DNA from: a virus
Taxonomy: Duplodnaviria > Caudoviricetes
DNA: 24,836 nt
Direction: 5' to 3' (one strand)
IMG/VR virus record: IMGVR_UViG_3300033067_000125
Span: 1 to 24,836 of that record
In this document: in pieces, positions 508 to 15,908 of the stretch
Layout: each line of letters opens with the position of its first letter
How positions within the stretch are numbered: the first letter of the stretch is position 1
Notes under the pieces: model-generated
Told to the model about the DNA's origin: nothing
The model's database searches: none
What the model saw: only the letters and a program-made list of their open reading frames with translations
Position numbers and translations under genes: made by a program

Positions 508-737
508 AGTGATTGATCTTTAATTTCTAAAAATATTTTTAGTTTATCAACGCCGCCAATTAGCTCTTCACCAGCAAATACTTGTGGTAATGAGCGTAGG
601 CCTTTACCTAAAAGGTAATCTCTACCAGCAGCATTAGTTTCTATATTGATCTCTGTAAATTCTACAAAGTTTTGTTCTAATAAACTCTTTGCAGTCACAC
701 AGTGCGGGCAGTTGTTCTTTGAATATACTATAATCAT
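504..737 (-). CDS. nrdC: Glutaredoxin (NrdC-like RNR reductant)
   Basis: YSKNNCPHC active site, SLPQVF cis-Pro motif, IGG; ATGA overlap with the nrdB stop. Confidence 0.93.
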   Translation of the reverse strand: MIIVYSKNNCPHCVTAKSLLEQNFVEFTEINIETNAAGRDYLLGKGLRSLPQVFAGEELIGGVDKLKIFLEIKDQSL

Positions 738-1858
738 AGTGATAGTCCTTTCATTGTTTCAGCTGAGACGTCTTGCTTAACGCCACCAGTGATGTAACTT
801 GTGATTTCAGTTTCTTGTGGAGCAACTTGAACGTTGCCACCACCAATCCACTTTTCTGTCCATGGCAAAGGATTTGATTGAGGTACACTATATGGTGAAG
901 TGTAACTTAATGCTCTCATACGGCGTGAACCAATCCACTCAACATAGTCACCTAACAAGCGTTCATTAAGACCAATCATTGAACCATCTTTGAAAAGGTA
1001 TTTAGCCCAGTCTTTTTCTTGCTCAATAGCTGATGTAAACATTGATAGGACTTGTGGCTCTGTTTCTTGACGAATACGAGCAAAGTCTAAATCATCTTTC
1101 AATAAGTGTTTAATGATAGATGTACTTGCAGCAAGGTGAGTGTTCTCATCACGCGCAATAAACTTAATAACCTTAGCATTACCTTCCATCTTCTTAAGCT
1201 CAGCAAACGCCCATGAACATGCAAAGGAAACATAAAAGCGAATTCCTTCGAGTATGTATACTGACATCAAACAAAGGAATAGTTTTTTCTTTAGTTCATA
1301 AAGGTCAATAACAATTGTTTTATCATTGACAATATGCTCACCGAATCCAAGTAACTCATACCAACGACTATAAGAAATAAAGTCGTCATAATATACAGAG
1401 ATGTCATGAGCGCAATCAAGAATAGGTTGAATAGTTTTGATTTCATCGAAAATCTTGCTCGGGTTTGCATAGATGTTACGAATGATATGAGTGTATGAGC
1501 GTGAATGAATTGTTTCAAAGAACGCCCATGTTTCCACCATCACCTCAAGTTCGGGCACAGACGCCATAGGTAGAAACGCAAGGTTAGGAGATCTACCTTG
1601 CACCGAGTCCAATAGGATCTGGCGCTTCAAGTTAGATGTAAAAATATGTTGCTCAAATTCATTGAGCGAAGCAAAGTCTTTACTATCTTTTGATAAATCC
1701 ATTTCTTCTGGGCGCCAAAAGAAACCCAATTGCTTATCGGTAATCTTTTCAAACTGTGGATATCGCACTGAGTCATATCGCGCAATATCAACTGACTCAC
1801 CGAAAAACATTGGTGACTCTAAATGACTTAGAGTCTTTAACTTAAATACTGATGACAT
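734..1858 (-). CDS. nrdB: Ribonucleotide reductase class Ia beta subunit
   Basis: FFWRPEE, LLDSVQGR, FETIHSRSY (radical Tyr), LEGIRFYVSF, RDENTH metal ligands, QVAPQETEITSY tail. Uninterrupted. Confidence 0.98.
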   Translation of the reverse strand: MSSVFKLKTLSHLESPMFFGESVDIARYDSVRYPQFEKITDKQLGFFWRPEEMDLSKDSKDFASLNEFEQHIFTSNLKRQILLDSVQGRSPNLAFLPMASVPELEVMVETWAFFETIHSRSYTHIIRNIYANPSKIFDEIKTIQPILDCAHDISVYYDDFISYSRWYELLGFGEHIVNDKTIVIDLYELKKKLFLCLMSVYILEGIRFYVSFACSWAFAELKKMEGNAKVIKFIARDENTHLAASTSIIKHLLKDDLDFARIRQETEPQVLSMFTSAIEQEKDWAKYLFKDGSMIGLNERLLGDYVEWIGSRRMRALSYTSPYSVPQSNPLPWTEKWIGGGNVQVAPQETEITSYITGGVKQDVSAETMKGLSL

Positions 1859-2014
1859 TTACCATTTTCCTAGTGGACACTTACTTGATGGTGGCATTAT
1901 CTTAAATAGGATAATGCAACCACAAGCTTTACATCTTTCAATTTGCTCTTTTGTAGACTTATCACATGTTTTACATATGTCGTATCTACGCTGTAATTCT
2001 TCTTTAATAGACAT
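1859..2014 (-). CDS. Small Cys-rich protein (51 aa) between nrdA and nrdB
   Basis: Manual translation MSIKEELQRRYDICKTCDKSTKEQIERCKACGCIILFKIMPPSSKCPLGKW, with CxxC...CxxCGC...CPxGKW. Its stop directly abuts the nrdB ATG. Confidence 0.8.
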   Translation of the reverse strand: MSIKEELQRRYDICKTCDKSTKEQIERCKACGCIILFKIMPPSSKCPLGKW

Positions 2015-2025
2015 ATGTATAACAA

Positions 2026-4326
2026 TTAGATTTTACACGATTCGCAATCTTCTTCGCCATCAACTGGTTCTGCTAACTTGTCTTCGATTTCTTTGAAGTC
2101 TCGTTCATGCATTTCGCCAGCACCATCATGAGTGTTGAAGTAGTATAGTTGCTTACCACCATACTTATAAAACATCACCAAGTGTTTAATCATTTCTGAC
2201 ATTGGTACTTTATGATCTTCATAGTTTTCTGGATTATATGAAGTGTTTACTGAGATACCTTGATCGATATACTTTTGCAACACTGCACAAATCTTTAGAT
2301 AACCTTCTGGTGATTTTTGATCCCACAGTAAATGATAGTGATTCTTTAACTTATGGTAACCTGGAACAACTTGAGCCATAACGCCATCCTTAGATTGCTT
2401 AAAGGATACTAATGCTCGTGGTGGTTCAATACCATTTGTTGAGTTACTAATCTGTGCTGATGTTTCAGCTGGCATTAATGCCATCAAGGTAGAGTTACGA
2501 ATACCGTATGTTTTTAGATCTTTACGTAAACCTTCCCAGTCCATACGTTCTTGATGTGGTACTAATTCATCCACTTCTTTCTTGTATGTTTGGTTAGGAG
2601 TAAGGCCTAACGAATACTTAGTTTCTTTCCACGCAGGACAAGCACCATATTCTTTTGCTAAATTGACAGACGCTTTGATCAAATAATATGACCATGCTTC
2701 AGTGTACTCATCAACAACTGGCAAAGCAGATTCATCATACTTTAGGCCACGTTTAGCAAGGAAGTATGCTAGGTTGATGATACCGTTGCCAAGAGGACGG
2801 CGATTTTTGGTTGATCGCTCTGCTGCTGGGACTGGGTACGATTGGTAGTCAAGCAAGGCGTCAAGGGCTCTGACTTGGAGGTCACAGTACTTTTCAAACT
2901 CATGTGGTGCGTTGATAAGTCCGTAGTTGGTGGCAGACAAAGTGCACAAACTGATTTCGCCATCGGTATCCTCTGATGATTTAAGTGGTTTAGTTGGTAA
3001 GTCGATTTCTGTACATAGGTTACTCATACGAATAGGAGCAACTTCTGGTATGAATGAGCCATGGCTATTAGCATGGTCTACGTTCATTAGGTAGATGCGA
3101 CCTGTGTCTTTACGTTCTGTCAAGAACTGTGAGAAGACTTCAAGTGCAGGTAAAACTTTCTTACGAATATCAGTACGTTGTTCGTACTTAATATACAACT
3201 CTTTGAACTTGTCTTGATCGGCAAAGAATGCATCGAACAAATCAGGAACATCATCAGGTGAGAATAGAGTAATGTTGCCACCAGTCAATAGACGTTCATA
3301 CATTGTCTTGTTGAATTGGAAGCAATAATCCATGTGGCGAACACGAGTTTCTTCAGTACCTTTATTGTTCTTTAGAACGATAAGGTTTTCAAACTCAAGA
3401 TGCCAAATAGGAATATAAACAGTTGCTGCGCCACCACGAACACCACCTTGTGAACATGATTTTACAGCAGCTTGGAAATACTTAAGGAATGGAATTAAGC
3501 CGGTATGAACAACGGAACCATCACCGATACGACTACCAATAGAACGAATGGCACCAGCGCCGATACCAATCCCAGCTTTCTTAGAAATGTAACGGACAAT
3601 CGAAGTCGACGTTGAATTGATGGAGTCCAAAGAATCGCCTGACTCAATAAGCACACAGCTACTAAACTGGCGAGTAGGAGTGCGAACGCCGGCCATGATT
3701 GGGGTAGGCAAACTGATATAAAATTGAGAAATTGCATCGTAGTAATCCTTAACGTATTTCATACGTGTATCACGAGGATAACGCATAAAGAGTGTCATAG
3801 CAATTAACATGTACAAGACTTGTGGTGTTTCATAAGGTACCTTATTAACACGGTCTTGAACCAAGTACTTACCACGGAATTGTTCCATGCCTACGTAAGT
3901 AAAATCGTTATCACGGTCATGTTTGATATAACGATCTAGCAAATCAATTTCTTGTTCAGTGAATTCAACCAGGACTTGACCATCATATACTCCACGCATA
4001 ACGTTTTGAGTGATGATAGTATTCAAACCCCAAGGCGTATATTCACCGTACACTTGCTTACGAATCTTGTAATTGACAAGACGAGCAGCAACATACTGAT
4101 AGTTTGGTGTATGCTCAGAAATAAGTTCTGCAGCAGATTTGATCAATAACTCATGAATGTCATCAGTTTGCATTCCATCATTGATCTGAATGTTAGACTT
4201 CAATTCAATCTCAGAGATTGAGACTCCATTGATGCCTTCACATGCCCACTCCAATACTTTATGGATTTTGTTCACGTCAAACGGTTCTTTGTTACCGTCT
4301 CTCTTTACTACATTAATATTTTGCAT
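2026..4326 (-). CDS. nrdA: Ribonucleotide reductase class Ia alpha subunit
   Basis: N-terminal ATP cone (VVKRDG), TRQFSSCVL, SQGGVRGG, SNLCTEI (thiyl Cys), PAETSAQISN, KQLYY, C-terminal CESCKI. No intron or intein apparent. Confidence 0.98.
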   Translation of the reverse strand: MQNINVVKRDGNKEPFDVNKIHKVLEWACEGINGVSISEIELKSNIQINDGMQTDDIHELLIKSAAELISEHTPNYQYVAARLVNYKIRKQVYGEYTPWGLNTIITQNVMRGVYDGQVLVEFTEQEIDLLDRYIKHDRDNDFTYVGMEQFRGKYLVQDRVNKVPYETPQVLYMLIAMTLFMRYPRDTRMKYVKDYYDAISQFYISLPTPIMAGVRTPTRQFSSCVLIESGDSLDSINSTSTSIVRYISKKAGIGIGAGAIRSIGSRIGDGSVVHTGLIPFLKYFQAAVKSCSQGGVRGGAATVYIPIWHLEFENLIVLKNNKGTEETRVRHMDYCFQFNKTMYERLLTGGNITLFSPDDVPDLFDAFFADQDKFKELYIKYEQRTDIRKKVLPALEVFSQFLTERKDTGRIYLMNVDHANSHGSFIPEVAPIRMSNLCTEIDLPTKPLKSSEDTDGEISLCTLSATNYGLINAPHEFEKYCDLQVRALDALLDYQSYPVPAAERSTKNRRPLGNGIINLAYFLAKRGLKYDESALPVVDEYTEAWSYYLIKASVNLAKEYGACPAWKETKYSLGLTPNQTYKKEVDELVPHQERMDWEGLRKDLKTYGIRNSTLMALMPAETSAQISNSTNGIEPPRALVSFKQSKDGVMAQVVPGYHKLKNHYHLLWDQKSPEGYLKICAVLQKYIDQGISVNTSYNPENYEDHKVPMSEMIKHLVMFYKYGGKQLYYFNTHDGAGEMHERDFKEIEDKLAEPVDGEEDCESCKI

Positions 4327-4358
4327 TGTTTATTTTAAAACTCCAAAGTTCAAAGTAT

Positions 4359-4387
4359 ATTATATCACACACCTAATTCGTTGTAAA
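4359..4387 (-). promoter_or_regulatory. Sigma70-type promoter for the nrd operon
   Basis: Minus strand TTTACA-17 nt-TATAAT with extended -10 (TGa-TATAAT), followed by a GGAG RBS upstream of nrdA. Confidence 0.85.
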
Positions 4388-4420
4388 TAGGCGTGATTAA
4401 AAATTTAAGCGGGATATGTG

Positions 4421-4996
4421 TTACGGGTTTAGCTTCTGTTGTTCACGGATCCACTCTTGCAATGCTTTTAGTTGCTGAGTGTTTTGGTGGCAGAGCCCGT
4501 AGTTTGCGATGACTGCGGTTGTTGCTTCAGAGAGTTTAACTTCTGAGGTTCTCGCATCAGTAGCTCCGATGGAGTCGGGAAGCTCGTTTTTCGCGGCAGC
4601 GTCGTGGAGCACGCTGTAAGAGTTAGGAAGCTGACACTTAGCATCAGCTTCATTAGTAACGTATTTCGAGATTGCATCATTGGTTTCCTTAACGACTGTA
4701 AGTTTATCTATATACTTCGTAACAACTTTTGTAGTTACTACAGCCTCTTTTTCTTTCAATTGTGCAATCTCTATTTGTTGTTCAAGTACCTTTTTCTGCC
4801 ATGATTCTTCATTAGCAATTCCACCTACCATGTACACTGAAAATAATAGGGTTGCAATAGAACCATATTTGATTGGTGTTGAGTAAGTGGCAATGAATGG
4901 AATTTTACTTAGAAGTGTGCCGGCAAATGTGCCAACCACAGCTAAGAGTAATAGACCAAAGAAGAACCAATCTGGCAAAAAAGATAACAAGAACAT
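4421..4996 (-). CDS. Inner-membrane spanin (Rz-like)
   Basis: Hydrophobic N-terminus, coiled-coil-like periplasmic part, two Cys (KCQLP, NYGLCHQN), C-terminal QLKALQEWIREQ; hosts an out-of-frame lipoprotein gene. Confidence 0.8.
   Translation of the reverse strand: MFLLSFLPDWFFFGLLLLAVVGTFAGTLLSKIPFIATYSTPIKYGSIATLLFSVYMVGGIANEESWQKKVLEQQIEIAQLKEKEAVVTTKVVTKYIDKLTVVKETNDAISKYVTNEADAKCQLPNSYSVLHDAAAKNELPDSIGATDARTSEVKLSEATTAVIANYGLCHQNTQQLKALQEWIREQQKLNP
4468..4680 (-). CDS. Outer-membrane lipoprotein spanin (Rz1-like), fully embedded in the i-spanin gene
   Basis: Signal peptide ending in lipobox LTA|C, Pro-containing mature part (FPTPSELLMREP), AAGGA RBS just upstream of the ATG; alternate frame within 4421-4996. 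Confidence 0.8.
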   Translation of the reverse strand: MMQSRNTLLMKLMLSVSFLTLTACSTTLPRKTSFPTPSELLMREPQKLNSLKQQPQSSQTTGSATKTLSN

Positions 4997-4997
4997 A

Positions 4998-6506
4998 TTA
5001 GCAATTCCATTTACGTAGAGCTAGAGCCTTACGTGTAGGTTCACCATTTGGTTTTTTCATTGGACCATCAACACCAGACATACGAGCGCAGAATGACTTA
5101 CGGCGTTTAGCAGCTTTACTTCCTGGCTTTAACTTTGATGGAGGAGTTGTAACAGCAGTCTTAAGGTTACCACCAGTCTTACGATTATAAGCATCAACAC
5201 CTTTTTGTGTTAATCCACCAGTAGAAGACTTATGACCTTTAGCATCAATAGCATATTCAAACAATTGATCGTCTTCAATAGACTCTAAACTTTCCCAAAC
5301 TGTTTCAGCATCAACATTATTTTCTAATGCTAATTCTGATACAAGTTCTTCGATTAAGTCAAATTGTTCATCAACTGATAACTCTTCGTTTGCTGCTTTA
5401 AAGTCTGCATCAGTTGGAGCACCTTTAGATCCTGGAGCACGCATCTTCTCGCCTGAACCATTTTTGATACGCTTGCGCTTAGCATGAATGTTTGCCCATA
5501 GGCCAGTCTTACCTTCTTCTAGTTCAACTGATTCTTTTACACATGAGCCTTTAGCACATGGTTTAGTTTTTGGTTTGCGCTTATAACCAGTCCAGCAATC
5601 ACACTCTTCGCTAAATTCTTTAAATGTTTGACGTTTCATTGGTTTCTTAGTTATAACTGACTTTTTACCAGCATCACCTTGTGTACCAGCAATAGATCCA
5701 CCACCTACGTTGTTACATGCAACTTCTTCATGTGTTGATAAAGATAGTTCATGGTGATGTTCAGCTTTCTCAGCGTGTTTATCTGCAGATGCAGAACGAC
5801 CTTTAGAATCATGCCACATAGACATTGCATCGTGGTGATTAGCCATGTGAGCGTGGTAAGATTTCTTATCACCTTTAGCATCAGCATCATTAGCTTTTGA
5901 TAGATGCTCTTCAGCTTCAGCGTGGTGATCAGTAGATTCATTAACCTTCTTTGGTTCTTCTTTCTTCTTTAGAAGATCTTCACCAGCTTTACGTTCACGA
6001 GCAGTTTTCTCTTGTTCACGTTGGAATGCTTGTTGAAGTTTCATAGCAGCAGTCATACGTACTTCGTCCAATTCAACTTCTTCATTAGTCTTCTTAGTAT
6101 GTTCTAAGTCACGCGTACCATGAACTTCAACGCTGTCATTCTTATCAGCCCAATCATGTAGATGCTCGTGGCTCTTAAATGTTTTACGCCATGGAGTACC
6201 CTTAGTACCTTTGATGCCGTGAGCTTCAATTGTATGACCTTTAGGTGTCACTGCTTCATCTAGATCTTCTTTAACAGCTTTGAAGTGAGTAGGTTTCAAC
6301 TGAATAGACTTACGTTCACCTGTAGTTTCATGGTGATCATAATCGACTGTATAAGTCTTAGGTGCACCTTTGTATAAACCCTTACGGATTTCACCAATGC
6401 GACCTTGCTTACCCTTTACATCAGCAGGGCCTTTATGAATAAGAACTTTGTCGCCAACTTTATGGGCTTCGTCCAATTGTTCTTCTAGTTCTTTAAACGT
6501 AATCAT
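4998..6506 (-). CDS. Modular putative internal head polyprotein (502 aa)
   Basis: N-terminus MITFKELEEQLDE resembles the T4 capsid-targeting sequence. Basic modules (KOW/SH3-like KVGDKVLIHKG, His-rich helix, CWxGY mini-domain, GLWANIHAKRKR, C-terminal GGLTQKG...RRKSFCARM...RKWNC) are separated by acidic LDE/VKE/VNE/LEE linkers. CDS is secure; function is inferred. Confidence 0.7.
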   Translation of the reverse strand: MITFKELEEQLDEAHKVGDKVLIHKGPADVKGKQGRIGEIRKGLYKGAPKTYTVDYDHHETTGERKSIQLKPTHFKAVKEDLDEAVTPKGHTIEAHGIKGTKGTPWRKTFKSHEHLHDWADKNDSVEVHGTRDLEHTKKTNEEVELDEVRMTAAMKLQQAFQREQEKTARERKAGEDLLKKKEEPKKVNESTDHHAEAEEHLSKANDADAKGDKKSYHAHMANHHDAMSMWHDSKGRSASADKHAEKAEHHHELSLSTHEEVACNNVGGGSIAGTQGDAGKKSVITKKPMKRQTFKEFSEECDCWTGYKRKPKTKPCAKGSCVKESVELEEGKTGLWANIHAKRKRIKNGSGEKMRAPGSKGAPTDADFKAANEELSVDEQFDLIEELVSELALENNVDAETVWESLESIEDDQLFEYAIDAKGHKSSTGGLTQKGVDAYNRKTGGNLKTAVTTPPSKLKPGSKAAKRRKSFCARMSGVDGPMKKPNGEPTRKALALRKWNC

Positions 6507-7096
6507 CTATAGATGTCCTCTACTGTTATGTATATTTTTTGTTTTGTAGATGGGTGGTAGACAGAGTAAATATTCACATCATTAAACTTACCTTGTGGAG
6601 GTGCACTTGCTTCATTGACCATAATCAATGAACCTTTGAATGCAACAAGTTCTCCAGTAATAGGAGACACTACATGTTCTGCTAACTTGTATTTACCTGG
6701 AAGTAGGTTCTCACCTTTAGTCATCCAAGTTTTTGATTCCGATAATGTATTGTCTAATGTAACACCTTGTTGTTCAAGGTATGCATTGAAGCCTTCAATA
6801 ATAGCTTCTTCTGACATTTTAGTATTCTCTTTAATCAACCAAAGCGCTGCAGCATATGATGCAAGTTTAGTTGAACCAAGAGGTACTTTATTAAGTAATC
6901 GTTTGATGTTATAAACTAAACGAAAGAATAGTGTATAAGCATCTTTCTCATCAGGTGTTGTTGCTTTACGTAACACCTTTCCATCTGCATCGATTAACCC
7001 AAGTTTGAATGCTTTAGTTTCATTCCATGGTGTAACCAATTGGCGTAGGAATCTAAACGTATAGTAGACATCTACTGCTCGTTGTAATATCGCCAT
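6503..7096 (-). CDS. Conserved hypothetical T4-like phage protein (197 aa)
   Basis: Long ORF translationally coupled on both sides. The TPWxxTxAFKLGLIDxxG motif is recalled from large T4-like phage late genes. Confidence 0.75.
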   Translation of the reverse strand: MAILQRAVDVYYTFRFLRQLVTPWNETKAFKLGLIDADGKVLRKATTPDEKDAYTLFFRLVYNIKRLLNKVPLGSTKLASYAAALWLIKENTKMSEEAIIEGFNAYLEQQGVTLDNTLSESKTWMTKGENLLPGKYKLAEHVVSPITGELVAFKGSLIMVNEASAPPQGKFNDVNIYSVYHPSTKQKIYITVEDIYR

Positions 7097-7464
7097 TAAA
7101 TTTTCCTTAATACTTCTACGACGTTTTGGTCTAGAGGTACTTCAACATATTGTTCTTCTGGTAGGTAATTTAAGTAGACAAGGAATGTCTTCAATACCGA
7201 CCAATTCTTTTCTTCAATCTTATAAAACATCATATGATTTGCTTCCTTAATACCAAACACATTATATAGTACTATCAAATGATTAAGGATTAGGCGTTCA
7301 GTCAATTCACCATTTGTCTCATAGCGATTAAACAACCTCTTCAAATATTTAAACCTTTGAAGATCTTCTTGAAATTCTTCTTCAGTCATACACTGAGGGT
7401 TGTTATAACTTTTTGCTGCAAAAAGCATAAAGTTTTTGCTATTCAGTTGTTCAAAACTTTTCAT
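7096..7464 (-). CDS. Conserved hypothetical T4-like phage protein (122 aa)
   Basis: AGGA RBS. YNNPQC...EEFQEDLQRFKYLKRLF...ERLILNHLIVLYNVFG is recalled from marine/freshwater T4-like phages. Confidence 0.8.
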   Translation of the reverse strand: MKSFEQLNSKNFMLFAAKSYNNPQCMTEEEFQEDLQRFKYLKRLFNRYETNGELTERLILNHLIVLYNVFGIKEANHMMFYKIEEKNWSVLKTFLVYLNYLPEEQYVEVPLDQNVVEVLRKI

Positions 7465-7472
7465 GATGTCCT

Positions 7473-7508
7473 AATAAAACATAACAGAGGGAATATTCCC
7501 TCTGTTAT
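7473..7508 (-). terminator. Probable intrinsic terminator or RNA hairpin built on a perfect 28-bp palindrome
   Basis: ATAACAGAGGGAATATTCCCTCTGTTAT (7481-7508) is self-complementary, lies directly after a stop codon and is followed on the minus strand by GTTTTATT. Confidence 0.6.
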
Positions 7509-7664
7509 TTACTCAACTACTGGAGTGTCTTCTTCAGGTTGGACAGGTTGTTGAGTTGTATCTAAACCTGTCACAGCCATTAGTAACTCACCAGTCTTAG
7601 CATCTGTCCATCCCATTTCAGTAGGGATAGCATCAGGTGCCCAGTGTGGTGCAGTTTGTGCCAT
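7509..7664 (-). CDS. Small hypothetical protein (51 aa)
   Basis: Manual translation MAQTAPHWAPDAIPTEMGWTDAKTGELLMAVTGLDTTQQPVQPEEDTPVVE; AGGA RBS; fills the gap after the 693-aa gene. Confidence 0.75.
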   Translation of the reverse strand: MAQTAPHWAPDAIPTEMGWTDAKTGELLMAVTGLDTTQQPVQPEEDTPVVE

Positions 7665-7667
7665 GGA

Positions 7668-9749
7668 TTATCCTGTCACTTTTGCTTTGAAGGTGCTGAA
7701 ACCTTTTTTGCCGGAGCCTTCTTTGCAGTTGGCTTTTTCGCTGATGGCGTCACCTTCTTCGTTGGTGCCTTCTTTGTAGCTGGCTTTGTCTTTGTCGCTG
7801 AGCTTGGAGTCGCCTTTGTAGGTTGCTGCACCTTGGCCTTTTGGACCTGTGGCTTTTCCAAGCTTACCGGCTCCACCGTCTTGCTTATCGGCTGTGACGT
7901 CGTCTGTGACGTCGACGTAATGCTGGTCAATAAAGTTTGCTTCACCTTCAGAATGAGGTTCCATAATTTCTGCATCATCTTGTTTATCCTTCATGTTTGC
8001 ATGTTTAATTTCTTTAGCGCCCATCTTAACGATTTCTGGTTGCTTTTCTTCATCTAAAACTAAGAAAGATTCATAGTCTGTTGATTCTTTTTTCTGAGCA
8101 GCGTAATAAGCAGCAAGAGCCATTTGCTTACGCTTCTCTGTTGACTTACCAGAGAATTGAGGAGCATCTGATTTAGTAAAATCGGAAATCCATTTTCCTG
8201 CTGATGAGTCTTTTGATAACACTTCATTGATTAGGAGGTCTAATTCTTTTTCATTGAAGAGTTCAAAACCTTCTTTTTTCATGCCATGCGCTTTACCATG
8301 TTCATGAGCTGCACTCATTGCAGCGTTAGGACCACGCTTTTCATAAGCAGACAAATACGCATGAGCACCTTCTTTAGCTTTTGCTGCAGTAGAATAACTC
8401 TTACCACCAGCGTACATTACAGTACCCTTTTCCTTATGCTTTACAATAGGGCGGTGACCACCAAACTGTGATGGTTCTGATGTTGCATGGTAGTCATCTG
8501 CATGAATAGCTTCAGTGATCACTGAATCAAAATCATATTGTGTATCTGCTTTATCATACACATAAACATCGTGGTGTGCTGCGTCTGCTTTGCGAATACG
8601 TTGGTGTGAATGAGCACCTGACTTAGCATTTTGATCTACATTAGTACGTTTTCCATTAGCATAAGTTGCTTTTGGAGCATCCTTAGAATACTTATGAGCA
8701 TTAGGATTGTCTTTGCCTAAACGACCTTGTAAAACAACACGCTTATTAGTACCTTTATGTTGAGCTTTAAGATCTGCTAATTTCTTTTCGGATTCAGCAT
8801 CACCTGGTTTGTGAGTGAATTGGAATGAAGAACTAGTGCGTGCTTGAGCTTCACCGAGCATATCTGAACCGTCATAATATGTACCATCATCAAGTAATTC
8901 TAAGTCAACTGATTCGTTCTTTTTGTCTTTACGCTCTTGAGCTTCATCATCTTTTTGCTTGCCGCCACCATAGCGCACGCCTTGTTTCTTACCAGTGCCA
9001 CCATTAGGTTGAGTAGCGTTCTTGTCTTTAACAGACTTAAGCATGTCATCCCAACCTTCTTCAACTTGCTCAACGGATTCACGTGTTAACTTATTAACTG
9101 CGCGTTTAATTCCTTTATTGCGTTTCTCTTGACCAGCATGAACTTTGTTTTTCATTGGTTCGCCGTAAGGTTTGTGGTCGCTGTTGCTATATGCACTATA
9201 TCCACGATGGAATGCGGTATCAGCTTTGTCATTAGCAGCTTTCTTGATATAGTTACCAAGTGTAGTCTTGCTTAATTCATCTAATTGTTCAAAATCTTCA
9301 GATACCATAAATTCTTGAAGTTCTTCCAAAGAATAGTCTTTAATATCTTCATTCACCGATTCTTTTTTGTAACCGTGAGATGCTAAGTGTTTTTCTAAAG
9401 AATCTTTGTGTTTGAATGCGGCAACAGTAGAACCGTCCTTACGACTATGTCCATATTCTGAACCACCACGCAATGCAGTAATAGTTTCACCAGTTTTTGG
9501 ATGCTTGTATGAACCTTTTTCAAAACCGGTTTTTACTTTTTCAAATCCATGTGCTTTAGCAACTGTGCTAACGGCAGCTTCATCTAATTGTTCAACTTCT
9601 TCTTTGCGAAGAAGTTTAAAGTCATGCTTATCTAGTTTACCATTCTTGTTTTTATCAAGTTTATGTTGATCGCCTTTAAGGCTTTCATCTTTCATCTTCT
9701 TGTAAGATTCAGAGATGCTATCAGTTTTAAAAATACCCCATGTAGTCAT
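7668..9749 (-). CDS. Modular putative internal head polyprotein (693 aa)
   Basis: AAGGA RBS; EF-hand-like loop DKNKNGKLDKHD; basic or His-rich modules separated by acidic linkers ending LDE, VNE, VEE, LGE, ITE, INE. One module is homologous to ORF 15117-15428. Confidence 0.72.
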   Translation of the reverse strand: MTTWGIFKTDSISESYKKMKDESLKGDQHKLDKNKNGKLDKHDFKLLRKEEVEQLDEAAVSTVAKAHGFEKVKTGFEKGSYKHPKTGETITALRGGSEYGHSRKDGSTVAAFKHKDSLEKHLASHGYKKESVNEDIKDYSLEELQEFMVSEDFEQLDELSKTTLGNYIKKAANDKADTAFHRGYSAYSNSDHKPYGEPMKNKVHAGQEKRNKGIKRAVNKLTRESVEQVEEGWDDMLKSVKDKNATQPNGGTGKKQGVRYGGGKQKDDEAQERKDKKNESVDLELLDDGTYYDGSDMLGEAQARTSSSFQFTHKPGDAESEKKLADLKAQHKGTNKRVVLQGRLGKDNPNAHKYSKDAPKATYANGKRTNVDQNAKSGAHSHQRIRKADAAHHDVYVYDKADTQYDFDSVITEAIHADDYHATSEPSQFGGHRPIVKHKEKGTVMYAGGKSYSTAAKAKEGAHAYLSAYEKRGPNAAMSAAHEHGKAHGMKKEGFELFNEKELDLLINEVLSKDSSAGKWISDFTKSDAPQFSGKSTEKRKQMALAAYYAAQKKESTDYESFLVLDEEKQPEIVKMGAKEIKHANMKDKQDDAEIMEPHSEGEANFIDQHYVDVTDDVTADKQDGGAGKLGKATGPKGQGAATYKGDSKLSDKDKASYKEGTNEEGDAISEKANCKEGSGKKGFSTFKAKVTG
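7676..7978 (-). CDS. Overprinted Lys/Ala/Pro/Thr-rich (histone H1-tail-like) protein, 100 aa
   Basis: Alternate frame inside the 3' end of the 693-aa gene; AAGGA 8 nt upstream of ATG; amphipathic N-terminus MMQKLWNLILKVKQ; repeated ATKK/PTKK/SAKK/TAKK/PAKK; 22 Lys versus 2 acidic residues. Confidence 0.65.
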   Translation of the reverse strand: MMQKLWNLILKVKQTLLTSITSTSQTTSQPISKTVEPVSLEKPQVQKAKVQQPTKATPSSATKTKPATKKAPTKKVTPSAKKPTAKKAPAKKVSAPSKQK

Positions 9750-9760
9750 TTTGTTATTCC

Positions 9761-10114
9761 TTAACCTAAAATTTTAGTAACGATATCTGCGTGACCAACG
9801 AGATATCCCAGTACGATTGCACCACCAGCGATCATCCAACGCCATCTTTCAAGAACATCTACTCTACTTGAGATTTGTTTAATGTCTTTTTGAATTTCAA
9901 CTTGGATTTCTTGGTGTTGAGTTTTTGCGGCCTCAGCAGATTTATTTAGTTTGGCATCTAATCTCTGATCCATCGCTTCAATCTTTTCAATGATCTCACG
10001 ATTGCCGGTTGTGATACGCGAATGAACTTCTTTCACGTCAGCTTTGAGGTCTTTAACATCCTCTTTAATGCCTTCGACTTGAATTTCCAATTTAGCTATT
10101 CTTTCAGTTTCCAT
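9761..10114 (-). CDS. Coiled-coil protein with C-terminal membrane anchor (XhlA/holin-like architecture)
   Basis: Heptad-rich METERIAKLEIQVEGIKEDVKDLK..., then LERWRWMIAGGAIVLGYLVG. Start moved to ATG 10114, just after the upstream stop. Confidence 0.6.
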   Translation of the reverse strand: METERIAKLEIQVEGIKEDVKDLKADVKEVHSRITTGNREIIEKIEAMDQRLDAKLNKSAEAAKTQHQEIQVEIQKDIKQISSRVDVLERWRWMIAGGAIVLGYLVGHADIVTKILG

Positions 10115-10115
10115 C

Positions 10116-10808
10116 TCACTGACTCTTCTTAATTGCAAGATCAACGAGGCGTTGAATTGATGTTGATTCTTTTTGCACTTCAGCCTTTAAACGGTTAAAG
10201 ACTTGATCGTCACCAGTGACTAATTCAGTTAGAGTAGTAAATGTAGTTAATAATAAAGTTCGTTGTTGAGTAGATAATGGCTTATTAGCCTTTAGTGTAT
10301 CTATAGCAAGTTTTAATTTGCTTACATCTGACTTATCTACTAAACCTAGTCGAGCTAACATTAAAATACGAAGTTCGCCTTGATCTGATGTCTCATAAAT
10401 CAAACGAGTATATTCTTCTTCAGTACTTTCATGAACACCACCATATTGATGGCTATGCACTGTAGCACCTTGTTTCTTATAGTGAGCAAGGGCAGTCTTA
10501 ACTGCGTGTTCACGACCATGATGTGTTGATACAGTAGCTGTACGCTTTTGCTTAGCAGTAGAACCCTTAGGAGTAATCTCAACATGGATTTTATGCTGCG
10601 GTTGTCTTACTGGATCTGGAACATGGTACTCATCATCTTCACGACCACGACCTAAACCTTCAACAACTTGTGTTTCTTCAGTCTTTACATCGTTCTCATC
10701 TTTAACATCTTTAACTTTGGCACGTACTTTACGACCAGACCTTGGACTAATTTTAAAGTCAGCCGAAACAATCTGATGCAGTTCCATGAATGCTTTAAGA
10801 GTTGCCAT
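10116..10808 (-). CDS. Modular hypothetical protein, possible internal head protein
   Basis: GGAG RBS before MATLKAFMEL (capsid-targeting-like); segments separated by VVE, VHE, IYE; His-rich central module and helical C-terminal domain. Confidence 0.7.
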   Translation of the reverse strand: MATLKAFMELHQIVSADFKISPRSGRKVRAKVKDVKDENDVKTEETQVVEGLGRGREDDEYHVPDPVRQPQHKIHVEITPKGSTAKQKRTATVSTHHGREHAVKTALAHYKKQGATVHSHQYGGVHESTEEEYTRLIYETSDQGELRILMLARLGLVDKSDVSKLKLAIDTLKANKPLSTQQRTLLLTTFTTLTELVTGDDQVFNRLKAEVQKESTSIQRLVDLAIKKSQ

Positions 10809-10809
10809 A

Positions 10810-11064
10810 TTAGTCTCCAAATGCTACAGCCACAGCTTTAATTGCTGCACTTGACGCAATAGTTTCAATAGTTACTTTACGAACATATGAAACTGAACCT
10901 GCTGGAATAGTGCATGTGCCAGTTGTGCCTGCACCATTAGCAACAGTAATCAATACAGCTGCAGCAGTGTCGTTGTAAAGACGAACAAGTTGGGCGCCGT
11001 TTACTGTAGTAGCAGTACTCAATGCAAATTCTTGTCCTACAAGTTTAATGATTCTTTCACTCAT
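10810..11064 (-). CDS. Small beta-rich Ala/Thr/Val protein, possible virion component
   Basis: 84 aa in the late operon, composition typical of small structural beta-sandwich proteins (VRLYN...LITV...TIPAG). Confidence 0.65.
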   Translation of the reverse strand: MSERIIKLVGQEFALSTATTVNGAQLVRLYNDTAAAVLITVANGAGTTGTCTIPAGSVSYVRKVTIETIASSAAIKAVAVAFGD

Positions 11065-11087
11065 TTTAATTTCCCATTAGATGTTGT

Positions 11088-11990
11088 TTAAGCTTTAAAT
11101 GGCTTAATTGATTTTTTATTTATTGATGTATATTCGGCCCAGTTAGTCTTATTCAACATCTCGTTGATAACAGCTTCCTCAACCTTGATCACGTCTTTTA
11201 ACCACTTACGCTGTTTAATACCATTGTAAGTTTCGATAATCACATAGTTAGAACCAAGGCGTTGGATTTGACCAAGCTCCTTTGATTCTTTAATTTCAAT
11301 TACGTCGCCAACCTTGAATAGATCACCATTCACATAGGCTTCTCGTTCTTTACTGAGTGTTGGCAATTGGATGTGTTGTCTAAAGTTGTATGATTCTTTG
11401 AGACCCATTCCTGCTCTAACTGCATTAAAAAGTTTTTGCGCTTCTTTAAATCCGCTTGGTAAGCCTTTTGCAAACAACTCAAAGTTGTTATCTCCGGCTG
11501 CTGCTCGCATTTTGCTTGCAGACATACCACTAACGTCTTCAGCGTCCGGGTCACGCTCACCAGCAGAGACAACCTGTACGCCGCCCTCAAAATTGTAGAA
11601 TCCTGTTGCACGTTTTTCTCCGTTGTATTTGTTCAGAGTTTTATTGAACTCTTCAACACGGTCAGAACCAACGACAAAAGTTACTTGTCTGTAACCTTGA
11701 GCATACAAAGAATCAAGAGCATCAAACGCAGTCTTAATTTTTACATCATTGATGATACTACGCGCATGACGTGGAAACATCTTGCGCATAAATTTAATTT
11801 TTGTATTGTAGTCTAATGGATTCTTCTTAGCATCATGTGATTGAGATGCGTAGATACGATACGTACCTTTAGAAATAGCATGAACTTTTTCAATGAGTTT
11901 CTCATGACCAACTGTAGGAGGATTGAAACGACCAAACGTAAATGTTACGTGGCCAGTAGCCTCTTTCAAATACTCTTTAAAATGTTTCAA
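11088..11990 (-). CDS. HxGH-class (cytidylyltransferase-like) nucleotidyltransferase with capsid-targeting-like N-terminus
   Basis: TFGRFNPPTVGH, KNPL, VVGSDR, SAGERDPD, MSASKMR; TTG start with GGAG RBS; N-terminus MKHFKEYLKE; extra C-terminal SH3-like segment. Confidence 0.85.
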   Translation of the reverse strand: MKHFKEYLKEATGHVTFTFGRFNPPTVGHEKLIEKVHAISKGTYRIYASQSHDAKKNPLDYNTKIKFMRKMFPRHARSIINDVKIKTAFDALDSLYAQGYRQVTFVVGSDRVEEFNKTLNKYNGEKRATGFYNFEGGVQVVSAGERDPDAEDVSGMSASKMRAAAGDNNFELFAKGLPSGFKEAQKLFNAVRAGMGLKESYNFRQHIQLPTLSKEREAYVNGDLFKVGDVIEIKESKELGQIQRLGSNYVIIETYNGIKQRKWLKDVIKVEEAVINEMLNKTNWAEYTSINKKSIKPFKA

Positions 11991-12398
11991 TTACTTTGCT
12001 CCGGTTTTACGAGCAATATCGTCTTGCTTAACGCGACGAAGTAACTTAGTTGAAATGCGCTTAATAGCACCTTTCATACGTTCAAGTCTTTTACTTACTT
12101 GAGCACGTTGTGAAATTGGAATTTGGGAAATAGAACGACCTTGATATAGTCGTTTGACTAAGAGTGATTTTGCTCTTGTCTTTGCGCGACCTTTGATTCG
12201 GTCTGATGATGCCAAACGTTTAGCTTGGATTTTGCGTGCTAGTGAGATTCTAGCTTTACGGCGAATGAATGATGCTTTTCTCTTTAGACGACCAGCGGTG
12301 TCTAAGACTTCATCAATCTGTTGTAGTTCTTCTGTGGTTAGTTCTACTGCGCTCGCAGCTTCATCTAACTCTTGTGAGTATTCTTTAAAATTTAACAT
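11991..12398 (-). CDS. Highly basic putative internal head or DNA-binding protein (135 aa)
   Basis: Start reassigned to MLNFKEYSQELDE. An acidic leader ending IDE is followed by an Arg/Lys-rich helical region. Confidence 0.72.
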   Translation of the reverse strand: MLNFKEYSQELDEAASAVELTTEELQQIDEVLDTAGRLKRKASFIRRKARISLARKIQAKRLASSDRIKGRAKTRAKSLLVKRLYQGRSISQIPISQRAQVSKRLERMKGAIKRISTKLLRRVKQDDIARKTGAK

Positions 12399-12408
12399 GT
12401 GTTTCCCA

Positions 12409-13644
12409 TTAACCGCGACCAGGACTATCCCAGCCTTTGATAATATCTGGATTGAAGTTGTTCGTACTGAACTCGAGTCTGTCAACCAATTTTACAGCCC
12501 CACCACCAATCCTGTCAATAGCAACGAATCCTTCCGCGCCTGTTACCTTAAAGCCTTGCTTTGTTTTAACAAACGTTTTAGTATTATTGATTTGGTTTAG
12601 CTTATTTATAATAATCTCTTTTGCAGCAACGATTTGTTTTTGCAATTCGAACATTTTTGCTAGATCTTCAAGGTGAGCATCTAGACTATTTAGTACTTGT
12701 TGGCGCTTATCAGATTTTGCAGTTTTAGACTTATCTGTTTTAAGTTTATCAATGTCTTTTTGATACTTGTCATGAATAAACTTTAATAGTCCTCTAGCAT
12801 GGTCTCGTCCACTTCCCATTCGCTCAGCTCTTCGGATGTAAGTGTTGTTGTAGGTATTAACGATGGTGTTAAGTTCTGTATCTGAAGAGATAAGATTGAA
12901 TACTCCTCTTCCAATAGACTGGAAGATTTTACCTGCATCGGATAATATCTTCGTGACGTGCTTCGTCTCACTCGAGGTAAGACTAGCTCGTCCTCCAACA
13001 TCTGAGAGTCCAGCTGATACAGCCCAGACCTTTGTAGTTTTCTTGAACGCTTCAACATTGACGCCATAGGATGCTCTCATTTCTTCGAATGATTTACCAT
13101 CGTATGATGTATGGAAGACTACACCAATGTTTGCATTTAGCAAAGCACCAGCCTCATCTTTTGGTACAGCATAAACGATGGTGTTTGGATGGAATGTAAT
13201 ATAATCCTCACCTTCAATAGTTTCACTCTTGAGATCGTCTTGAGTGAACATAATATCGCCTTGCACTACACCTTTAATACCTAACAACTTTAAGTTGTCA
13301 AATGCAATGATGAGTTTCTTTTGAAGGTCGCCTTGTGTATCTGCTTCGATATCAGCATGTGACTTATACACCTTTGGGTTCTTGTTAAAGATACCCTTCT
13401 TAGCGACAAAGAACTTACCATCTTGTGGATCGATTCCAGCAAACACTGCTGGTGCACCATCCCACTTGACTGTAAGTCCTACCTTTGATTCTGTTGCTTG
13501 ATGTCCAGCTAACATATCTCTTAATGATTGAAGAGCGTTAATTGCTTGACGTGCTCCATTGACTCCACCATCAAGGACTAAATCCTCAAGGTGAGTCATG
13601 TGTGTATTCTTTTCTTCAGTTAAATAATTCTTGAATGATTTCAT
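12409..13644 (-). CDS. Ligase-like covalent nucleotidyltransferase-motif protein (411 aa; resembles the family I recall as DUF6267)
   Basis: Start reassigned to MKSFKNYLTEE. TVKWDG, QGDIMF, EGFVA and VKLV occur in the order of ligase motifs I, III, IV and V. Confidence 0.7.
   Translation of the reverse strand: MKSFKNYLTEEKNTHMTHLEDLVLDGGVNGARQAINALQSLRDMLAGHQATESKVGLTVKWDGAPAVFAGIDPQDGKFFVAKKGIFNKNPKVYKSHADIEADTQGDLQKKLIIAFDNLKLLGIKGVVQGDIMFTQDDLKSETIEGEDYITFHPNTIVYAVPKDEAGALLNANIGVVFHTSYDGKSFEEMRASYGVNVEAFKKTTKVWAVSAGLSDVGGRASLTSSETKHVTKILSDAGKIFQSIGRGVFNLISSDTELNTIVNTYNNTYIRRAERMGSGRDHARGLLKFIHDKYQKDIDKLKTDKSKTAKSDKRQQVLNSLDAHLEDLAKMFELQKQIVAAKEIIINKLNQINNTKTFVKTKQGFKVTGAEGFVAIDRIGGGAVKLVDRLEFSTNNFNPDIIKGWDSPGRG
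12603..12610 (-). promoter_or_regulatory. Possible internal T4-type late promoter
   Basis: Exact TATAAATA on the minus strand about 200 nt upstream of the 12398 start; could be chance in AT-rich DNA. Confidence 0.4.
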
Positions 13645-13651
13645 TTTGTTC

Positions 13652-14464
13652 TTACAGTAAGCATTTATAGTTTGCGTTGTTTTCCATAATGTTAACAGTA
13701 GTACCATTGATTGGTGCGATGTTGTATGGTGTTGTGTTTTTAGGCAACGCAAATTCGATAGTAAATGTAAACTGATAACCTTGAGCACCAATTCGTCCAT
13801 TTGACTTTTCAGCAGCATCAGCTTTGGTAATACCCTTTGATTGACATCTTACACGAGCTGTGATTCTGCATGAATCTTCAAACTTTGGCACTAATGGAAG
13901 ACCAGCTTTTTTCATTCTTTCGTTTAAACCTAATGGGTCTTTATTGCCAAGTAAGTAGAAACCATGTGTACCAACGTTTATGTAGTACGTATTCTTAAGG
14001 TTATAATACTTAGTCATTGCATCTGCTGGTAATTGCATCTTGATGTCTGGGCAAGTTTTTAAGTCAGTGTCATAACGTTCACGTAATGGAATCTTTAACA
14101 TTTGACGTTCCCAGTCTTTTGTTCTATCTGAAACATTATAGATCGGTGTATCCCATTTTCTATTGATTTCAGTTAGTACACCAGCAGACTTTGCTAAATC
14201 TGCAAGGAACTGTTTCTCAGTTTCATCATGATCGATGTCACCAAATTTCCAGTGTGGAGTTGAGTTGGCATATGCTTTAATTACAAGACTTCCACCAGCA
14301 GTAGGTGATATCTTTAGTTCGCAACCTGCCTCTTTACCTCTTACAGTAAGCATTAAATCTGGGCGAGTGTGGGATGCACCTGCAGTTACACCATCAGATA
14401 ATCCAAATTTCTTGAGAAACTTGGTTGCATTTTCCTCGTATACGAATCCTTGTTGAGCAGCCAT
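13652..14464 (-). CDS. PD-(D/E)xK restriction-endonuclease-fold protein
   Basis: N-terminal GFVYE helix, then RPDLML-x8-CELK (PD...ExK); first gene after the late promoter. Confidence 0.6.
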   Translation of the reverse strand: MAAQQGFVYEENATKFLKKFGLSDGVTAGASHTRPDLMLTVRGKEAGCELKISPTAGGSLVIKAYANSTPHWKFGDIDHDETEKQFLADLAKSAGVLTEINRKWDTPIYNVSDRTKDWERQMLKIPLRERYDTDLKTCPDIKMQLPADAMTKYYNLKNTYYINVGTHGFYLLGNKDPLGLNERMKKAGLPLVPKFEDSCRITARVRCQSKGITKADAAEKSNGRIGAQGYQFTFTIEFALPKNTTPYNIAPINGTTVNIMENNANYKCLL

Positions 14465-14488
14465 TTTTATTCCATTAAACTATACTGC

Positions 14489-14496
14489 TATTTATA
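14489..14496 (-). promoter_or_regulatory. T4-type late promoter
   Basis: Exact TATAAATA on the minus strand, intergenic, about 25 nt upstream of the 14464 ATG and directly after a terminator. Confidence 0.85.
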
Positions 14497-14523
14497 AAAA
14501 ACTAAGGGCAGCTAATGCTGCCC
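14496..14523 (-). terminator. Intrinsic terminator ending the early cluster
   Basis: Minus strand GGGCAGC-ATTA-GCTGCCC followed by TTAGTTTTTT, just after the peptidase stop. Confidence 0.85.
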
Positions 14524-14527
14524 CGTT

Positions 14528-14944
14528 TTAACTATTTTTTAGATAGAGGTTGTAGAGTGGTTCCTCTAATTCCCTAGCCTCTCGTTCCCAAGAGGAGTTA
14601 TAATGGTCTTTTGTCTTATGGTAAGCTTGTTCATCTATTCGACCAGTACACATTTGCCATACATGAACCAATTCATGAGCTAGACATTTTATGGCAAAAT
14701 CCATTCCTTTGTCACCACGAATATCTACATCAATTTCCTTTGGTTTACCATTATCATATTCTTCGGTACAAAGACAATAACCATCTACATCTTTCTCAAG
14801 ACCTTTGCCTTTGACTGCAATATTGATCGTAACTCGATTTTGTTTACGTCCCATCAATTCATTCAAAATAATACTCGCAGCATTATACAAGATCTCACGT
14901 TTTTCTGTAGTGAGATATGGACTTGGCTTAATGTAAATCATCAC
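14528..14944 (-). CDS. HExxH zincin-like metallopeptidase-fold protein
   Basis: LAHELVHVWQ and downstream WEREA; DGYC strand upstream. Confidence 0.75.
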   Translation of the reverse strand: MMIYIKPSPYLTTEKREILYNAASIILNELMGRKQNRVTINIAVKGKGLEKDVDGYCLCTEEYDNGKPKEIDVDIRGDKGMDFAIKCLAHELVHVWQMCTGRIDEQAYHKTKDHYNSSWEREARELEEPLYNLYLKNS

Positions 14945-15114
14945 TTATTTTTAATGTAGTTAATCAGTTCTTTTGCTTGACTTAGATCACTAAAATCGAC
15001 AGCTGCATCAATCATGTCAAGTTGTTGTTCATGTAGATAATCTAATGTTTGTTGAATGACAACCTGTTTCTTGCGATTGCCAGTAATACGTTTATAATAA
15101 TCTTGTGGATTCAT
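14941..15114 (-). CDS. Small hypothetical protein (57 aa)
   Basis: Manual translation MNPQDYYKRITGNRKKQVVIQQTLDYLHEQQLDMIDAAVDFSDLSQAKELINYIKNK; AAGGAG RBS; fills the gap. Confidence 0.75.
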   Translation of the reverse strand: MNPQDYYKRITGNRKKQVVIQQTLDYLHEQQLDMIDAAVDFSDLSQAKELINYIKNK

Positions 15115-15116
15115 TC

Positions 15117-15428
15117 TTAACTCCTTGCATGAACATACACATCAATACGAGTTGCGTCTTCCATCTTAATAGACTTAATCCATTGGTTCTTGTATTTAGT
15201 AGCATATGCTGGATTGTTTTTACCAAGACGTGGCTTCAATACAACACGATATTGTTTGGGCTTTTGCAAGTCAGATTGTGGATTCCACTTCATCTTATTT
15301 TCATAGTGAAGTCGAGCAATCTTGTTTGATGTAGCAACTGTCTTGCGTACAATCTCAACTGCATTCATATCAGTAACTGAGTTCACATCAGCTGTAAAAA
15401 TGTATGCATCACTAGTACGTTTAGTCAT
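15117..15428 (-). CDS. Early hypothetical protein, paralogous to a module of the 693-aa polyprotein
   Basis: RTSDAYIFT / RVVLKPRLGKNNP / DATRIDVYVH align by eye with RTSSSFQFT / RVVLQGRLGKDNP / DAAHHDVYVY at 8550-8849. Confidence 0.8.
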   Translation of the reverse strand: MTKRTSDAYIFTADVNSVTDMNAVEIVRKTVATSNKIARLHYENKMKWNPQSDLQKPKQYRVVLKPRLGKNNPAYATKYKNQWIKSIKMEDATRIDVYVHARS

Positions 15429-15591
15429 TGTTGTCTTCCGTCAAAAGTTGATTAGTCAATTTGTAGCATTCAGTTTCCACTTCAAGAATCATCTCAAGCG
15501 GATAACCTGTAAGTTTCTCAATATCAGCAGGCCAATATCCAGCACGAATGTATTCAGCAACCTCGAGTTGCATTTCAGCCATCTTACCCAC
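15421..15591 (-). CDS. Small acidic hypothetical protein (possible HTH-like)
   Basis: Probable GTG start overlapping the upstream stop (MGKMAEMQLEVAEYIRAGYWPADIEKLTGYPLEMI); exact start uncertain. Confidence 0.6.
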   Translation of the reverse strand: MGKMAEMQLEVAEYIRAGYWPADIEKLTGYPLEMILEVETECYKLTNQLLTEDNND

Positions 15592-15775
15592 GATCAACTG
15601 TTCCCAAAACACCACGAGAACCACGAACATACTTGCTTACAGTTTGAGCCCAAGGTGTATAACGACTTTTGTTAATTGGAAAAGTTGTTTCACTATTCTT
15701 TGGACCACGATAAGCGCATCGAGTAATCTTTACACCGTCTACAATGGTAACCACATCTACTTTTTTCTTAGCCAT
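15584..15775 (-). CDS. Small basic early protein (63 aa)
   Basis: First ORF after the strong promoter; AAGGAG RBS. Confidence 0.75.
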   Translation of the reverse strand: MAKKKVDVVTIVDGVKITRCAYRGPKNSETTFPINKSRYTPWAQTVSKYVRGSRGVLGTVDRG

Positions 15776-15806
15776 TTCAAACTCCTTTTTGACTGTTGAT
15801 GGATCT

Positions 15807-15835
15807 ATTATACACCATTTGCGGGTAGTTGTACA
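15807..15835 (-). promoter_or_regulatory. Sigma70-type early promoter
   Basis: Minus strand TGTACA-17 nt-TATAAT, intergenic, followed by AAGGAG and ATG. Confidence 0.85.
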
Positions 15836-15846
15836 GGGCTAAACGT

Positions 15847-15888
15847 AAAAAAGTTCTAACTGTATCATTTTAGACACAGTTAGAACTT
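15847..15888 (-). terminator. Intrinsic terminator after the epimerase
   Basis: 13-bp perfect inverted repeat AAGTTCTAACTGT / ACAGTTAGAACTT (15851-15863, 15876-15888), extendable with a G-U pair on the minus strand and running into a T tract. Confidence 0.7.
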
Positions 15889-15908
15889 AAACCTAAAGTA
15901 TTCAGTTT

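Follow-up and report, generated by a model that had tools for sequence, protein, structure and literature searches.

Background

The T4 Alt protein is packaged in the phage head, processed by the gp21 protease and injected, and its paralogues ModA and ModB are free proteins (PMC5512222, PMC9026906); the T4 internal proteins Ip1-3 (IPI, IPII and IPIII) inhibit distinct GmrSD type IV restriction enzymes (PMC12373910, PMC9026906). The cut made by gp21 falls after L/I-X-E, and the Ip proteins are directed to the head by a leader of 10 residues (PMC9026906, PMC9958956); the capsid-targeting propeptide is given as about 10–19 amino acids (aa) that end at L/I-X-E. Polyvalent proteins are multidomain, virion-linked polypeptides for which processing and injection have been proposed (Iyer et al. 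2017, PMC5512222). Packaged proteins with free paralogues (Alt versus ModA/ModB) and domains that are both solo and polyvalent (such as PBECR) are thus already known (PMC5512222). Here we describe a small domain that is encoded twice in IMG/VR record IMGVR_UViG_3300033067_000125, a 24.8-kb fragment of a T4-like phage (24,836 nucleotides (nt), called the window below) in which every long, recognisable gene is on the minus strand: once as a module of a polyprotein and once as a free-standing gene (Table 1).

The two copies are homologous, and the module is a removable genetic cassette. The account that we favour, at a probability of roughly one half, is that the copies are old paralogues, that the free gene is expressed early, and that the module is an optional cassette which would be packaged, cut out and injected, to serve in the cell as a predicted binder in the manner of the free protein. 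What the data show is the homology, the gain and loss of the cassette at its linkers, and the gene context; packaging and cutting are inferred.

The locus is like that of T4 Alt and ModA/ModB in having a head-delivered protein and a non-packaged paralogue in one genome and in L/I-X-E processing, both predicted here. It is unlike them in that those proteins are ADP-ribosyltransferases (ARTs) encoded as whole genes, whereas here the unit is an unnamed 100-aa domain that shows no enzyme signature and sits as a removable cassette within a polyprotein of shuffled modules. No ART family match was found, and the model of about 100 aa, with a beta-alpha-beta-alpha-beta order, has no invariant Ser or Glu as in an R-S-E active site. 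With the T4 Ip proteins the predicted cargo shares small size, basic charge, dispensability and variability between relatives, and in many relatives a putative N-terminal leader that would be removed at L/I-X-E. However, each Ip protein has its own capsid-targeting sequence and gene and a narrow distribution, with no free early twin described in the available parts of PMC12373910 and PMC9026906, while the present family is broad, mostly free and without a sequence match to solved structures. No PHROG, PDB-sequence or fold match to Ip1, Ip2 or Ip3 was obtained, though kinship may exist without such a match.

As in polyvalent proteins, several unrelated domains share a polypeptide, are shuffled between relatives and also occur solo. 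Those proteins carry mostly enzymes and are proposed to be cut by a zincin-like metallopeptidase of their own, whereas the joints here fit a prohead protease and the domains are small and outside Pfam. The window polyprotein has no Pfam or PHROG match above cut-off, although the supplementary domain list of Iyer et al. (2017) could contain the domain. Finally, several relatives carry the polyprotein in the portal-protease gene slot, with many gp21-type sites, like the T4 prohead core proteins gp67 and gp68 (PMC9958956, PMC9026906); unlike these small, digested proteins, the polyproteins are mosaics of 250–1100 aa with site-free domains, and the window copy lies outside the head operon. The available parts of PMC3012670, PMC9503650 and PMC7824862 give context and do not concern this family.

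Homology of the module and the free gene

The first-pass annotation of the window had noticed three collinear matching blocks, and these are found on the minus strand where it placed them, in polyprotein aa 301–400 and in the free gene. BLASTP alone detects only the middle block (10 of 13 residues identical, E 1e-4). Shuffled versions of the free protein reach the real score in 0–3 of 3000 cases on the module and in 0–14 of 3000 on the whole polyprotein (six settings each), and the polyprotein is the top non-self match of the free protein among all window frames of at least 50 aa (score 53, the next being 37). The pairwise evidence is modest. Profiles built separately from the free protein with 20 retrieved homologues and from the module with 14 retrieved modules match each other at a probability of 98.2 (E 4.5e-14), the module query retrieves 32 loci of which 21 are fused and 11 are free genes, and intermediate forms (loci L026–L039) bridge the two. 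Polyprotein aa 301–400 and the free gene are homologous, and the shuffled control and profile comparison that the annotation had proposed as checks both came out in its favour.

The AlphaFold models were compared by the order of their secondary structure and by their top fold matches. The free protein has strands at residues 9–14, 59–67 and 94–102 and helices at 18–48 and 73–79 (predicted local distance difference test score (pLDDT) 92), and the module has strands at 9–13, 36–43 and 92–99 and helices at 18–31 and 51–54 (pLDDT 83). The order of elements is common to both, the main helix of the module is shorter, and the same three unnamed viral structures head both lists of viral fold matches (template-modelling (TM) scores 0.57–0.73). 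The predicted folds agree, where differing folds would have told against the annotation; because some sequences are common to the two folding alignments, this agreement does not count as independent support.

The annotation also had the flanking linkers coincide with the ends of the free protein. This holds at the L-G-E site, which falls at the free protein's start, and fails at the I-T-E site (8511–8519), which is separated from the end of the homology by 13 residues; excision is therefore predicted to release aa 301–413 (8511–8849).

The module is a removable cassette

Freshwater metagenomes contain DNA nearly identical to the window, including a contig of run X5 that is identical to it over 4300–16000 and may itself be the source of the window; no RNA data set was listed among the carriers. 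In two lake runs of one study, X1 and X2, contigs jump from position 8514 to 8905 with 9 other bases between, a net loss of 381 nt or 127 codons that stays in frame, and the free gene is kept there. The empty allele, read by hand, retains one linker (E-S-V-E-Q-I-D-E, followed by A). Empty-site contigs have depths of 58 (X1) and 23.8 (X2) beside module-bearing contigs at 26.8 and 16.7; such contig depths are crude, and their coming from a single study weakens the case. A second joint removes aa 135–231 in frame, exactly between the predicted sites E134 and G232, and none of the eight listed joints skips the free gene. Independently of X1 and X2, the orthologous polyprotein of the relative L004 is 327 aa long and lacks the module, and the free gene is present there (84% identical). 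The neighbours of the module vary widely across 99 polyproteins; a count of 89 architectures in the 99 is approximate because module family M0 was over-merged. The module is a removable genetic cassette and is dispensable, and with its empty-site alleles and shuffled neighbours it agrees with the idea in the annotation that polyprotein modules are autonomous units. This genetic evidence is unusually direct, and natural alleles with and without the module that end exactly on protease-type joints make the cargo-polyprotein idea testable.

Other variants were seen in the same runs. Further X1/X2 joints within and between the polyprotein genes (5269–5392, 4828–5038, 6090–9227 and 9605–10611) suggest more cassette variants, and a third allele of low depth (7.2, X1) has a stretch between the same sites at 8513–8913 that is possibly a different cassette. 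An X1 contig over 13385–14605 is a divergent allele of the gene at 13652–14464: 133 of about 1220 bases differ, with compensating insertions and deletions over the gene and nearly identical flanks. The 247-aa protein P0230 joins this domain to a segment like aa 11–75 of the product of open reading frame (ORF) 4998–6506 and to the LSKxTLGSYIKKA module of the window polyprotein, so the two polyproteins exchange modules. For the remaining 17 segments of the window no leaderless free twin was seen among the 4175 ORFs of loci selected for the present domain, and when the P0263 N-terminus was compared with small post-portal genes the real score was reached by 37 and 1404 of 2000 shuffles.

Protease sites and probable head loading

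A set of 372 proteins gave 99 fused and 252 free cores for scoring, after 21 proteins had been dropped as of intermediate length, leader forms or not delimitable. An [LIVMF]-X-E motif ends within 6 aa upstream of the module in 98 of the 99 fused copies, against 14% at random positions, and one lies within 20 aa downstream in 83, while 13 of the remaining 16 modules are C-terminal. Inside the fused cores [LIV]-X-E is absent (0/99, 26 expected by shuffling), whereas 80 of the 252 free cores contain it and the remainder of these fused proteins has it at a density of 2.2 per 100 aa. A site is present in the first 16 aa of 75/99 polyproteins versus 8/252 free proteins; that of the window polyprotein is I-S-E at aa 12–14, in an atypical start. 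Eight of 18 fused loci adjoin a portal and/or head-protease gene (names checked for L010 and L026). A T4 gp21-type protease is encoded in four of the five relatives searched (G001, G002, G003 and G015), among them the near-complete G002, as well as in L010 and L026; the window fragment itself contains no head genes. These patterns argue that the module is quite probably packaged and cleaved.

The same site map bears on two other explanations. An ordinary uncut multidomain protein with acidic linkers could be imagined, as L/I-X-E is short and common, but the sites flank the module ends far above chance, the leaders end in the same motif and the natural deletions end on sites, and we regard it as highly improbable. 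The module might instead be a passenger of almost no effect on fitness, picked up through recombination in the linker DNA and broken down together with the core as the head matures. Empty and filled alleles do coexist, and gp22, gp67 and gp68 are degraded by gp21 (PMC9958956). Against a passenger stand the lack of the protease motif in the cores at its frequency elsewhere in the same proteins, and strong conservation over many genomes, which leave that explanation very improbable.

A third possibility is that the module is packaged and cut and has its role inside the capsid, as a basic DNA-neutralising or core-filling piece, with only the free copy acting in the cell. The module is basic (pI 9.6), in several relatives its polyprotein gene has the position of a prohead-core gene, with the portal and protease genes on either side, T4 internal-protein lysines contact packaged DNA (PMC3012670) and loss of IPIII slows head assembly (PMC9026906). 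However, the module keeps the family's conserved residues and is about 75–85% alike between relatives amid shuffled neighbours, and a filler needs neither; this role seems to us distinctly unlikely.

We note that in G002, which has the same locus layout as the window, two small genes fill the portal-protease slot. The major head protein of this genome (L150, 6351–7685) has I-T-E, the downstream tripeptide of the module, at aa 53–55, a plausible propeptide position.

Probable timing of the two forms

The free gene lies in a five-gene cassette bounded by two terminator-like hairpins, behind the promoter-like sequence TGTACA-17-TATAAT, with TATAAATA, which we take to be the T4 late-promoter consensus, after the second hairpin. 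The same promoter spacing is found in L001–L005. In the clustered set, 15 of the 34 free representatives have a sigma-70-like site within 600 nt, against 12% of random windows and none of the 9 fused representatives, and TATAAATA lies within 600 nt in 3/9 fused versus 2/34 free representatives; unclustered, sigma-70-like sites accompany 21/50 free and 0/14 fused forms, and late boxes 2/50 and 7/14. The free gene is likely early. The annotation had proposed that the activity is delivered first from the virion and then supplied again by early transcription; gene context and promoter patterns uphold the late/head versus early placement, and the part that has the same activity re-supplied is weakened by the relation of the two copies.

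The two copies are probably old paralogues

Free and fused forms occur together on seven contigs (the window, L001/L018, G001, G002, G006, G020 and G021), and two relatives, G015 (94% complete) and G003 (80%), show the free copy only. P0103 and P0311 (BFVD A0A2H4N7S4 and A0A2H4N7T5) are one free and one fused form; their accessions are neighbours, the longest contig has the same length for each (166,207), and they probably represent one more genome with both. In a tree from 97 columns and a quick search, which is weak, the modules group together and the same-genome free partners scatter over subfamilies; modules about 75–85% alike in relatives are paired with free genes from different subfamilies. 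A clade of window-type same-genome pairs is rejected by the approximately unbiased (AU) test (p-AU 0.022), and with it a recent duplication within this genome. The module has lost half of the long helix, and N35 is kept in 97% of 149 free representatives versus 36% of 14 head-form ones; core residues R67, G69, Y79, A92, D96 and Y98 are common to both forms. Because the partners scatter, the pair clade is rejected and the module lacks half the helix and N35, the two copies appear to be old paralogues, not sisters. We infer that free genes came first and that head-targeted proteins acquired the domain on more than one occasion.

In its strict form the first-pass annotation gives both copies the same activity and target, early synthesis replacing the virion dose. 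The shared core residues, the seven contigs with both forms and the opposite promoter types are in keeping with this, but the copies in one genome are not sisters, their partners come from different subfamilies, the module is without the helix extension and N35, it is dispensable, and G015 and G003 show a free copy only. Strict re-supply is accordingly unlikely, and by analogy with Alt the packaged copy has probably diverged into a version for time zero, as opposed to an identical top-up.

Proposed mechanism

On the account of old paralogues and an optional packaged cassette, the free early gene would be a standing supply of a small basic protein. The module would be loaded into the prohead as part of the polyprotein, cut out at the flanking L/I-X-E sites and injected as an optional time-zero dose. 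In the cell it would do what the free protein does: both are predicted to bind, without enzymatic activity, either nucleic acid or a host protein that handles nucleic acid, and so to protect or prime the phage genome in the first minutes of infection. Injection and action in the cell are somewhat favoured. A nucleic-acid-directed counter-defence or takeover role is tentative: the binder is proposed because of charge, conservation, breadth and analogy, and for anti-defence the analogy is to T4 Ip1-3. More speculative, and in our view rather doubtful, is the idea of a genetic retiming of effectors by T4-like phages. Here an early gene, from a new counter-defence family that spans phages and whose fold is unsolved, would have been inserted as a cassette between sites for the head protease, would have lost its internal cut sites and would be delivered at time zero; the filled and empty alleles kept in one lake population would amount to a switchable payload.

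Several observations weigh against the account as a whole. The 99 fused copies form just two clusters at 60% identity (11 at 75%), so about four lineages stand behind the lack of internal sites; as a site occurs in 71 of the 149 free representatives, the chance of such a lack is about 0.07 by hand calculation, and the free cores are themselves somewhat depleted (80 observed, 103 expected). The window polyprotein starts MTTWGIF, without the K-x-F-K-E leader of many relatives, and its gene is neither in the head operon nor flanked by the portal and prohead-protease genes. The window has promoter motifs in numbers expected by chance (44 versus 38.7 expected; TATAAATA 2 versus 1.7), and no TATAAATA lies within 2.5 kb upstream of the polyprotein gene. 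The AU test does not reject a single origin of the head forms (p-AU 0.225), and the function is guessed without fold or family support.

Through this locus the acquisition of cargo by phage heads can be approached genetically, with a normally solo domain inside protease-type joints. Capture into head-targeted proteins marks the family as a candidate first-minutes effector.

The domain family

The family profile finds 509 proteins of 41–189 aa among 1134 candidates (277 representatives at 50% identity) and, as fused forms, 102 proteins of at least 215 aa among 8000 scored. This defines a widespread small phage family that numbers hundreds of clusters, present in T4-like, roughly 50-kb and cultured Pseudoalteromonas phages, without a named relative or a clear solved fold. 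Three architectures occur: free genes, which are the majority, internal or terminal polyprotein modules, and a short leader plus the domain (P0118, P0099 and P0250). This distribution answers to the mapping of free versus fused forms across phages that the annotation had called for. Free genes lie within five genes of a DUF6267 gene in 23 of 69 entries, and in phages of roughly 50 kb others adjoin a Gp2.5-like single-stranded DNA-binding protein gene. Two family members stand in tandem among the small genes of a 9.3-kb inverted repeat in the cultured Pseudoalteromonas phage XG4, which provides a cultured host-phage pair for the family. This repeat is perfect (1–9333 / 12590–21922 of L047, PP712099.1) and may represent terminal repeats or an assembly artefact. 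In L112 (4728–5294), L029, L030 and L033 an HD-type phosphohydrolase gene with a leader-like start (MLNFKSHINQPLNE) is found downstream of the free gene.

Residues T12, R67, A92, D96 and Y98 are invariant among 138 rows of alignments unfiltered by motif; in the trimmed alignment the 100% values for T12, D96 and Y98 are partly forced by the trimming rule. T12, N35, R67, Y79, D96, Y98 and a GRLGKxNP loop are conserved, with no obvious catalytic cluster, and both forms are basic (isoelectric points (pI) 10.0 and 9.6).

Searches for a named relative gave no Pfam match for 138 family members (best E 0.008), no PHROG match for the domain, and no convincing match in NCBIfam (1/142 at E 0.003) or PADLOC (1/7 at E 0.02). 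By sequence PDB gave 0 matches, a tryptophan synthase at E about 1 being rejected, and Foldseek against PDB gave none at E 0.001 or below. The best structural matches (Z 3.8 for the free model; Z 4.5 for the module, with SpoVS, root-mean-square deviation 6.5 over 59 aligned residues) were rejected as generic. Unnamed ESM Atlas clusters at 0.84 bear an automatic "carboxylate-amine ligase" label that we do not trust, and a second ESM Atlas search gave no named match. Among cultured phages P0001, P0103 and P0128 had no match, and XG4 alone was reached, through L037; mycobacteriophage tape-measure matches were rejected (E 0.3 or worse). A single pattern scan of GTDB, a weak test, gave seven stretches and no confirmed relative, and a sequence index contained no look-alike of the free protein or the module. 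In the literature, with subscription papers and supplements outside our coverage, we found no description of the domain or of protease-jointed cargo polyproteins in T4-like phages.

Other features of the window

Table 1. Features of the window around the module and the free gene (pI, isoelectric point)
Feature	Position	Strand	Remarks
Multi-module polyprotein	7668..9749	-	693 aa; 8 segments of at least 35 aa between [LIVMF]-X-E sites
Predicted excised module	8511..8849	-	polyprotein aa 301–413; pI 9.55
Homologous core of module	8550..8849	-	polyprotein aa 301–400
Upstream L-G-E site of module (A follows)	8850..8858	-	fits T4 gp21 rule L/I-X-E (PMC9026906)
Downstream I-T-E site of module (A follows)	8511..8519	-	aa 411–413
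Genetic cassette (module)	8515..8904	-	replaced by 9 other bases in empty-site contigs
Second cassette, polyprotein aa 135–231	9057..9348	-	joint 9056–9349, one base between
Free-standing family gene	15117..15428	-	103 aa; pI 10.0; no leader
Sigma-70-like promoter TGTACA-17-TATAAT	15807..15835	-	heads small-gene cassette 15775–14528
Terminator-like hairpin	15851..15888	-	insulates small-gene cassette upstream
Terminator-like hairpin	14505..14524	-	closes small-gene cassette
TATAAATA	14489..14496	-	25 nt ahead of gene run containing polyprotein
Second polyprotein-like gene	4998..6506	-	leader-like start MITFKELEEQLDE; DUF6321 C-terminus

Five minus-strand genes (4998–6506, 7096–7464, 11088–11990, 11991–12485 and 12409–13818) have leader-like M-x-x-F-K-E starts at the first or an internal Met, most of them then showing a site such as L-x-E. 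The products of this run include the second polyprotein, DUF7207, a cytidyltransferase, DUF6267 and others, and it is a candidate head-cargo cluster judged by these starts. Of the 69 free entries, 9 have a metallopeptidase-like gene close to the free gene; that of the window lies at 14528–14944 (Pfam Peptidase_M91, E 1e-5).
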